DNA of 64,000 nucleotides from Gemmatimonadota bacterium. Its GTDB lineage: Bacteria; Gemmatimonadota; Gemmatimonadetes; Gemmatimonadales; GWC2-71-9. The DNA lies in assembly GCA_033763675.1 (NCBI GenBank), contig JANRJZ010000042.1:976-64975 (forward strand). The letters are read 5' to 3'. Shown piece after piece: positions 30,189-30,663 of the stretch (within the stretch, counting starts at the first letter, position 1; each line of letters starts with the position of its first letter). The translations under genes were made by a program, and so were the position numbers. The notes beneath the pieces were generated by a model that saw only the letters and a program-made list of their open reading frames with translations, ran no database searches and was not told where the DNA came from.

Positions 30189-30228
30189 GCCCCAACTTAC
30201 TCCCGGCGCCGACCAGGGACCATCGGGT

Positions 30229-30641
30229 CGTGGAAAACTGACAGAGGAGCCCCAATGCAACTTGTCCACATGAAAACCGCTGCCTAGTGGGAGCCGCCAC
30301 GACTCCGACATCGAGTCTCCCACGCCTGTGGAATCATGGCTTTATCCACATGTGGAATGGGGAAACCGCCCAGCAACCGGCTGCATGCCGCTGTGCCACA
30401 AAGGACTTGACCGCCACTTGCTTTTCCACTTGAAGTCAATCGGCTAAACACAGTTCCCACAATGGGAAAAACACCAACGCCAATGTTGATAATGGGGATG
30501 GCGACAGTGTCGCCAGTGCCGAGTATTCTATGCACAGATTGTGTATATGCCCCCAACCGGTGCCTTCCCTGGCCGCGAAGCTGGCCGGCGTTGGCCACAA
30601 GCAGAAACCCCGATCCGATGGGCCGGATCGAGGTTTCCACA
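30229..30641. promoter_or_regulatory. cluster of DnaA-box-like 9-mers in an AT-rich intergenic island
   Basis: The boxes are:
- TTATCCACA 30342-30350 (perfect consensus)
- TTGTCCACA 30262-30270
- TTTTCCACT 30422-30430
- GTTTCCACA 30633-30641
- GTTCCCACA 30453-30461
- Reverse-oriented: cgtggaaaa 30229-30237, tgtggaatc 30327-30335 and tgtggaatg 30351-30359

My hand count gives 126/240 GC (52.5%) for 30301-30540, against 72-73% in flanking coding lines. Confidence 0.4.
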
Positions 30642-30663
30642 TCAGCCGCACCCGGGGAGTCAG

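Follow-up and report, generated by a model that had tools for sequence, protein, structure and literature searches.

The DNA analysed here, hereafter the window, is a 64,000-nucleotide stretch of contig JANRJZ010000042.1 (positions 976 to 64,975 of the forward strand; GenBank assembly GCA_033763675.1) from a Gemmatimonadota bacterium of the order Gemmatimonadales, a group of soil bacteria. An intergenic island of low GC content, located between an amidohydrolase gene and a hypothetical gene, carries a conserved core of about 320 bp that is the subject of this work and is called the element below. The element is a real, strongly selected array of protein-binding DNA sites, and it is specific to Gemmatimonadales. 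Our preferred reading, held with about as much confidence as doubt, is that DnaA may assemble on it, away from the origin and within the promoter region of a pyk-pgi-fba operon, which would couple operon expression to DnaA and buffer the initiator.

The island differs from its surroundings in composition and in box content. Its GC content is 58.1% over 475 bp against 70.5% for the window, dropping to 47-49% across 120-160 bp, and the 475-bp windows of lowest GC in the 64 kb are all found at 30.0-30.4 kb. When the box consensus TTWTNCACA is scored with at most one mismatch, nine matches fall in the island (19/kb) and four in the other 63.5 kb (0.063/kb), a density about 300-fold higher in the island. 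When the island is shuffled with its dinucleotide composition preserved, boxes number 0.55 on average and 4 at most, and none of 2000 shuffles yields nine. The box count is therefore not explained by AT-richness. A coding function for the island was rejected, the long open reading frames that run across it (for example 30284-30859) being high-GC artefacts and the spacers differing by 1-2 nt in length from one relative to another.

A preliminary description, made from the letters of this DNA, had already singled out the island as the long low-GC stretch, with GC counts of 126/240 and 56/120 in two of its parts. It had listed eight box-like 9-mers and a 12-bp palindrome, TCCACATGTGGA (30345-30356), and had placed both flanking genes on the minus strand, the left one being read as an amidohydrolase. 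The GC counts are exact, the motifs all lie where they had been placed, and the left gene encodes an Amidohydro_3 protein; the boxes are enriched over the rest of the window and over shuffles of the island, and the recurrence of island and boxes at the same position in related genomes, suggested as a check, was found. One correction concerns the eighth box (30633-30641), which is inside a terminator-like hairpin, is common only to the closest relative and probably stands outside the element. Several features had escaped notice, namely the box-like sites at 30484-30492 (TTATCAACA), 30528-30536 and 30540-30548, the regular 80-bp spacing of three boxes, a second palindrome, TGGCGACAGTGTCGCCA (30499-30515), and the hairpin itself (30604-30637).

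In the direction of the operon, the sites follow one another in the order a/b, palB, c, d, e, f, g/h, i with its adjoining block, j and k (Table 1). They are either single 9-mers or opposed pairs with spacers of 0, 2 or 3 bp. Boxes a and b form an opposed pair with a 3-bp spacer, whose family form is ATATNCACA-N3-TGTGNATAG (30528-30548 in the window), and boxes g and h abut, with the family form TTCCACA/TGTGGAWAA (30342-30359). The block that follows box i may hold a further box opposed to it, CGTGGGAGA, at a distance of 2 bp and with three mismatches. Box f is a semi-conserved TTCCAC located between e and g. A repeat finder shows an exact 80-bp step from the box at 30262 to that at 30342, and again from there to the box at 30422. 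In almost all genomes, h and j match the consensus perfectly or nearly so, and other boxes carry fixed single mismatches, box c reading TCAACA and box e ending in T. On either strand, palB reads GCGACA, and an AT-rich hexamer follows it 17 bases farther from the operon (30499-30515 and 30517-30540). The hexamer is TATTCT in the window and AATAAT in locus L009 (9692-9720, minus strand). This makes a weak promoter-like layout that points away from the operon, its spacing being held by the invariant distance between a and palB. Outside the island, an isolated TTTTCCACA box is found at the ispG/ccdA junction (33346-33354, plus strand) and is kept in the two closest relatives (L001 and L002, at 6835).

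This geometry is conserved far beyond the window. The amidohydrolase has its best relatives in Gemmatimonadaceae metagenome-assembled genomes (MAGs) at 92-94% identity, with dozens more at 55-67% across Gemmatimonadales, and upstream of these genes TT(A/T)TCCACA boxes recur about 80 bp apart, with a low-GC island in every locus. Altogether, about 100 related loci, from genomes and from metagenomes, contain the element. Each holds 4-9 boxes, with a density of 14.5 per kb in the element against 0.146 per kb in the flanks. In an alignment of 28 non-redundant relatives, the e-h distance is 80 bp in 25, the h-j distance 79-81 bp in 19, the palB-h distance 161-162 bp in 25, and the a-palB distance 35 bp in 26. 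The palindrome palB was found in 46 of 58 Gemmatimonadota genome loci. In more distant Gemmatimonadota, the amidohydrolase-pyruvate kinase pair occurs without the element. Two architectural groups are seen, and the g/h palindrome is the part kept most widely in both. Group 2 (e.g. L012-L033) keeps two box-like sites at the palA position, palB, a ATATTCAC block and the g/h palindrome. The ATATTCAC block is a degenerate box at the position of box f of group 1, and it is followed by g in the same orientation and then by h opposed. From palB to box g, group 2 measures 155 +/- 1 bp as in group 1, and the 120 bp between palB and the g/h pair are AT-rich (30-45% GC) and not conserved. A sigma-54-like string in the window, TGGCAC-N5-CATGC, is not kept in relatives and was set aside. 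In L046 and L047, a reduced element made up of one strong box and TATGCAC-type repeats is located about 300 bp upstream of the amidohydrolase gene, directly after a gene whose translation looks MarR-like, as judged by eye; its product could be a candidate partner regulator.

The gene context is equally constant. On one strand, the relatives show the order IspG-CcdA-ResA-AhpC-(hypothetical)-[element]-(amidohydrolase)-pyruvate kinase-(metallo-beta-lactamase-fold protein)-PGI-aldolase. The element is always between ahpC or the hypothetical gene and the (amidohydrolase)-pyruvate kinase-PGI-aldolase operon, directly 5' of the latter and on the same strand. A pattern scan of metagenomes running from palB to box h returned 80 loci, of which 16 chance matches in unrelated or eukaryote-like DNA were discarded; the 64 true loci all share this context. 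The amidohydrolase gene is missing in 19 of them (L084, L085, L089, L092, L099-L101, L106, L117, L129, L131, L141, L142, L146-L149, L156, L162), where the element stands directly before pyruvate kinase, and it is therefore an optional first gene of the operon. In three loci (L042, L044, L048), the block formed by the element and the amidohydrolase, pyruvate kinase, metallo-beta-lactamase-fold and PGI genes is inverted as a unit, with the aldolase gene lying divergently upstream of the element. Since the element is retained without the amidohydrolase and is inverted together with the block, it is tied to the 5' end of the glycolytic operon and not to the amidohydrolase itself. The idea, put forward in the preliminary description, that the array might control the amidohydrolase gene needs correcting in so far as it concerns this gene alone.

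Table 1. Features of the element, of the intergenic island and of the neighbouring genes (window coordinates).
Feature	Position	Strand	Remarks
Intergenic island	30189-30663		bounded by the GTG start codon of the amidohydrolase gene (30188-30186) and by the stop codon of the hypothetical gene upstream
Conserved core (element), about 320 bp	30227-30548	- (operon direction)	alignment of 28 relatives: invariant blocks, variable spacers of fixed length
Box a, ATATACACA	30540-30548	-	1 mismatch to TTWTNCACA; TAT.CA invariant 28/28
Box b, CTATGCACA	30528-30536	+	1 mismatch; TG.A.A positions invariant
Palindrome palB, TGGCGACA(G/C)TGTCGCCA	30499-30515		family form GGCGACACTGTCGCC; core GACACTGTC invariant in the 28-sequence alignment
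Box c, TTATCAACA	30484-30492	-	conserved weak box, family form TTWTCMACAT; 8/10 positions invariant in 28/28
Box d, GTTCCCACA	30453-30461	+	2 mismatches; TTGTGG block conserved
Box e, TTTTCCACT	30422-30430	+	first of three 80-bp-phased boxes; A.GTGGA.A invariant; family form AGTGGAWAA
Box g, CATTCCACA	30351-30359	-	adjoins box h, making palindrome TCCACATGTGGA
Box h, TTATCCACA	30342-30350	+	perfect DnaA-box consensus, central anchor; TGT.GA.AA invariant 28/28
Box i, GATTCCACA	30327-30335	-	TC.AC invariant
Conserved block, GGCGTGGGAGACTCG	30312-30326	-	follows box i; family form GCGTGGGAGACTC
Box j, TTGTCCACA	30262-30270	+	third phased box; TGTGGAWAA in nearly all relatives
Box k, TTTTCCACG	30229-30237	-	semi-conserved
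Terminator-like hairpin	30604-30637	-	after the upstream gene; 14-nt arms, 93% complementary
Upstream hypothetical gene	30664-31515	-	signal-peptide-like N-terminus, no Pfam match; start approximate
Amidohydrolase (Amidohydro_3, YtcJ-like)	28614-30188	-	first downstream gene; absent in some relatives
Rest of downstream same-strand gene string	21646-28517	-	Pfam; synteny across relatives
Pyruvate kinase	27042-28517	-	conserved operon member (Pfam, synteny)
Metallo-beta-lactamase-fold protein	26260-27039	-	conserved operon member
PGI	24887-26746	-	conserved operon member
PPC-domain protein	23156-24850	-	between PGI and aldolase in the window genome
Class II aldolase	21646-23061	-	conserved operon member

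The operon promoter would have to lie within the element, because the hairpin closes the upstream gene and because the g/h pair of group 2 is located a few tens of bp upstream of the coding start, as read by eye from the sequences. The hairpin was not called by a strict terminator scan because of its weak T-run. The constant position of the element 5' of the operon, kept through gene loss and inversion, suggests that it may act on transcription of the neighbouring genes or on initiation.

As to what binds there, the sites point to DnaA. Their conserved positions reproduce TT(A/T)TNCACA, and variation is concentrated at position 3, where A and T are both tolerated. The coexistence of single sites with pairs of varied spacing argues for a monomeric site reader of the DnaA domain IV type, and not for one dimeric factor. 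DnaA assemblies typically combine strong sites with weak ones, and a perfect TTATCCACA or TTTTCCACA is a high-affinity DnaA site in bacteria generally. From such perfect and near-perfect boxes, occupancy by DnaA is a safe inference, drawn from sequence. Several DnaA-type boxes are gathered here in a non-origin intergenic region, as in DnaA-box clusters (DBCs). In contrast, palB, the most invariant block of all, is not a DnaA box and may be presumed to be the site of a dimeric partner protein. Its sequence has no match in the literature searched. For the palindromes, the parS, NrdR-box, Rex and LexA-type motifs were tried and rejected for misfits of spacing or sequence.

These features can be assembled into a model. 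DnaA would begin at box e and at the two consensus anchors, h and j, all three phased at 80 bp. The weaker boxes a, b, c, d, g, i and k, fixed in evolution and in several cases paired head-on across 0-3 bp, would be filled next. The resulting nucleoprotein complex would span about 300 bp, have a fixed geometry and probably include a dimeric protein at the palindrome GACACTGTC. Since this complex would cover the only promoter region available to the operon, transcription could become dependent on the level or the state of DnaA, and the approximately ten sites might also serve as a DnaA sink.

Some observations weigh against this reading. Pattern scans of the window, L030 and L013 revealed no canonical sigma-70 promoter in the element; in L009, one weak sigma-70 match occurs on the opposite strand and uses the GCGACA of palB as its -35 element. 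In Bacillus relatives, DnaA-box clusters are found next to different genes in each species, whereas the Gemmatimonadales locus is fixed across the order. A single position holding about ten strictly spaced sites throughout an order is more typical of an origin. The polarity tests described below cover 64 kb, and the polarity of the octamer that they use is presumed for this phylum. Finally, when the +/-10 kb flanks are compared in 29 genomes, 25 show the lower GC skew upstream of the element (-0.008 vs +0.008), a small difference whose polarity would fit an origin; these genomes are not independent, because the same genes are compared each time.

One alternative is an origin of replication: the element could be the chromosomal oriC of Gemmatimonadales, at a site remote from dnaA, or else a secondary origin that lies dormant. 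The order-wide array of mixed-affinity boxes and the flank skew just mentioned are in its favour. The same is true of the nine boxes in 475 bp, the cluster that an origin calls for, of the position of the element in the lowest-GC segment of the window, and of the AT-rich stretch between palB and the g/h pair in group 2; moreover, no origin has been described for Gemmatimonadota in the literature searched. The polarity of the DNA tells otherwise. With gene-strand effects separated, the GC skew has a replication term of -0.020 to the left of the element and -0.013 to its right, with a probability of about 0.05-0.08 that the right-hand term is positive. The raw skew is -0.0137 and -0.0080, respectively, and the cumulative skew reaches its minimum at 64 kb, the end of the window, and not at 30.4 kb, with only a shallow plateau at 32-48 kb. 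About 68% of the coding sequence of the window is on the minus strand, according to a tally of Pfam-supported gene blocks, and in 29 relatives 88% is on the operon strand in both flanks. An octamer of the FtsK-orienting polar sequence (KOPS) type, GGGNAGGG, is distributed 4:16 (plus:minus) in the window and 2:8 on each side of the element. It stands at 0:7 inside plus-strand gene blocks, so that its polarity is not a coding effect, and it keeps one polarity on both flanks in 31 relatives. This distribution suggests that, as in E. coli, a polar motif marks the leading strand in Gemmatimonadales.

No switch of leading-strand polarity was found at the element, either in the 64-kb window or in the +/-10 kb flanks of relatives. 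Skew, gene orientation and octamer have the same sign on both sides. Together they indicate that the leading strand is the minus strand all along the window, and that the fork, coming from an origin past its right end, crosses the element in the direction of the operon. With an origin at the element, the 16 kb of genes directly to its right, including ribonucleotide reductase and ispG, would face the fork head-on. As regards an unwinding element, no 30-bp stretch of the window has less than about 37% GC (hand count). The lowest-GC part of the island, about 37% over about 30 bp (hand count), is itself built of two boxes, while group 2 relatives have their 120-bp AT-rich stretch inside the element. 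In E. coli, box R1 faces the unwinding element; box c, next to the AT-rich end, faces away. Finally, Pfam annotation of essentially every gene shows dnaA, dnaN, parAB and mnmG to be absent from the window, which leaves no origin-associated gene within 30 kb, and a tblastn probe with E. coli DnaA, run without a positive control, found no dnaA in the window or in 80 related genome loci. As a leading explanation, oriC is ruled out by GC skew, polar octamer, gene orientation and gene content, and we regard an origin of either kind as very unlikely. The preliminary description had leaned the same way, noting that no dnaA or dnaN was nearby; the secondary DnaA-box cluster that it offered as another option draws support from the match of the boxes, their enrichment and the non-origin polarity.

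A non-origin array may nevertheless do something other than regulate the operon next to it. Its main job could be to set the nucleotide state of DnaA through ADP release or ATP hydrolysis, as at the DnaA-reactivating sequences (DARS) or at datA of E. coli, with the opposed pairs forcing unusual DnaA-DnaA contacts and palB binding an architectural cofactor comparable to IHF or Fis. Indeed, the opposed, convergent pairs are the most conserved feature, g/h being kept in both groups, and the DARS core requires boxes I and II to be oppositely oriented (PMC6868365). E. coli DARS1, read directly, is TTATCCACT-5 bp-TGTGGATAA-3 bp-TGTGTATTA, in agreement with the published head-to-head I/II core (PMC6868365), and shows the same convergent polarity around a perfect central box. 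The three-box logic is also found in group 2, with its ATATTCAC box, g and then opposed h, at a spacing that differs from that of DARS, and the fixed distance to palB recalls the cofactor sites of DARS2 and datA. However, the window does not have the DARS arrangement of convergent boxes I and II at 5 bp and box III head-to-tail to II, since its spacers are 0, 2 and 3 bp and no third head-to-tail box stands 3 bp after h; palB, being a GC-rich palindrome, does not resemble a site for IHF or Fis. Outside Enterobacteria and their close relatives, DARS and datA are not known to occur. Nor would a role of this kind account for the strict association of the element with the 5' end of a single operon, and we find this explanation unlikely. 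A combined version, tentative and rather improbable, makes the element a dedicated DnaA-remodelling hub, in a phylum for which no regulator of the initiator is known, in which opposed DnaA pairs on an 80-bp scaffold, together with a palindrome-bound protein, would reset DnaA in a DARS- or datA-like manner and also set the transcription of pyruvate kinase, PGI and aldolase.

It could also be that DnaA is not involved and that the likeness to DnaA boxes is coincidental, the element being an operator array for one or several other regulators, for example a repressor of carbon metabolism. The preliminary description had considered operators for another regulator, and in part the idea stands: TTCCACATGTGGAA, ATACACA-N3-TGTGCAT and GCGACACTGTCGC are all palindromes of the dimeric-factor type, the element invariably lies just 5' of a metabolic operon, and palB is certainly no DnaA box, which makes the involvement of another protein likely. 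It is weakened by half-site spacings that vary between 0, 2 and 3 bp, by the many isolated 9-mers (c, d, e, j, k) and by conserved positions that fit TTWTCCACA and, more generally, TT(A/T)TNCACA, including A or T at position 3. Besides, a perfect TTATCCACA or TTTTCCACA should attract DnaA whatever else binds. We therefore judge a purely non-DnaA array to be quite unlikely. As for RNA, a long stretch of conserved non-coding DNA immediately before an operon might have encoded a structured non-coding RNA or a riboswitch leading the amidohydrolase or pyruvate kinase mRNA. What is conserved, however, are short blocks that correspond, on both strands, to motifs of the protein-binding kind. Rfam gave no family at the gathering threshold in the element and only noise at E <= 10, and RNAalifold on the 28 sequences predicted three trivial pairs inside palB (-0.7 kcal/mol, covariation term 0) and no conserved structure. 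The Rfam result and the zero covariation effectively refute this explanation, which keeps almost no credibility.

If DnaA does bind the element, the latter would be among the most conserved secondary DnaA sites known and would tie the replication initiator physically and directly to central carbon metabolism. Genetic arguments for such a tie have been made in Bacillus and E. coli, but we know of no dedicated cis-element for it. Should the remodelling hub prove true, central carbon flux would be wired directly to the initiator. Control of the initiator outside model Proteobacteria and Firmicutes is largely unknown, and nothing on replication control in Gemmatimonadota was found in the literature searched; the locus offers a defined target. 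While non-origin DnaA-box clusters are already known as a kind from B. subtilis, what appears to be new is a deeply conserved array with base-pair-exact geometry and a putative partner site, placed before core glycolytic genes.

Other features of the window may be mentioned. A signal recognition particle (SRP) RNA gene (Rfam RF00169, 43.7 bits) is located at 13635-13734 on the plus strand, just upstream of the dnaX-ybaB-recR string and on the opposite strand to it (10893-13532, minus). No tRNA is found anywhere in the window. A signalling cluster (39808-51426) comprises two Ser/Thr kinases, one of them with a TonB_C domain, two FHA-domain proteins carrying zinc ribbons or a trypsin-like domain, and a PP2C phosphatase; it is followed by a 1060-aa Cache-PAS-GGDEF-EAL protein. 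At 9422-10614 (minus strand), the second-lowest-GC part of the window (about 65%), a small Ras/Arf-like GTPase adjoins a Roadblock/LC7 protein, forming an MglA/MglB-like pair. Among the conserved genes upstream of the element, homologues of the hypothetical gene are called at 281-282 aa in relatives. In one MAG (L081, 4623-6785), the annotation fuses the genes for aldo/keto reductase and IspG (GcpE) into one product of 720 aa, which is probably a frameshift or an assembly artefact because sister assemblies call two genes.

The element shares features with several known systems. Like a bacterial oriC, it has many boxes of mixed affinity, strong anchors about 80 bp apart, low local GC and conserved spacing, but it comes without a polarity switch, without dnaA or dnaN and without a clear unwinding element beside a correctly oriented box. 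Origin finders based on box counts would probably miscall it as oriC. In P. aeruginosa, oriCII, upstream of gidA, is described as an origin-like cluster whose native role is the DnaA-dependent control of the promoter of the adjacent operon (PMC13438810). A comparable link between an origin-like DnaA-box cluster and a neighbouring operon promoter is proposed here; oriCII belongs to the origin-proximal gidAB-parAB region, whereas the present site has no origin-associated genes nearby and, by its leading-strand polarity, is passed through by the fork.

With DARS1 and DARS2, the element has in common a short non-origin cluster in a promoter region (DARS1 is upstream of uvrB) and a convergent pair around a perfect box. 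It differs by its size, with about ten boxes across 320 bp where DARS has three within about 30 bp, by the lack of sequence homology, by its spacers and, in group 1, by the lack of an adjacent third head-to-tail box; there is no evidence of an IHF or Fis site in the element, although no systematic IHF-motif scan was made. According to the summary of datA in PMC3245932, datA is likewise a non-origin locus where several boxes, with the site of a second protein at a defined distance, restrain the initiator. There, an AT-rich IHF site accompanies five boxes over about 1 kb, in contrast to the GC-rich palindrome of 15-17 bp and the denser, phased boxes found here.

The closest analogues are the DBCs of B. 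subtilis, where six non-origin clusters of DnaA boxes are located in intergenic regions, some of them regulating their neighbours, and together restrain initiation (PMC3245932). As in the element, many boxes are gathered in an intergenic region outside oriC; the B. subtilis clusters stand by genes whose transcription DnaA can modulate and can act collectively as a DnaA sink (PMC3245932), as the element may do. The Gemmatimonadales element is set apart from them by its base-pair-exact spacing, its single order of sites, its invariant palindrome distinct from a DnaA box and its attachment to a glycolytic operon.

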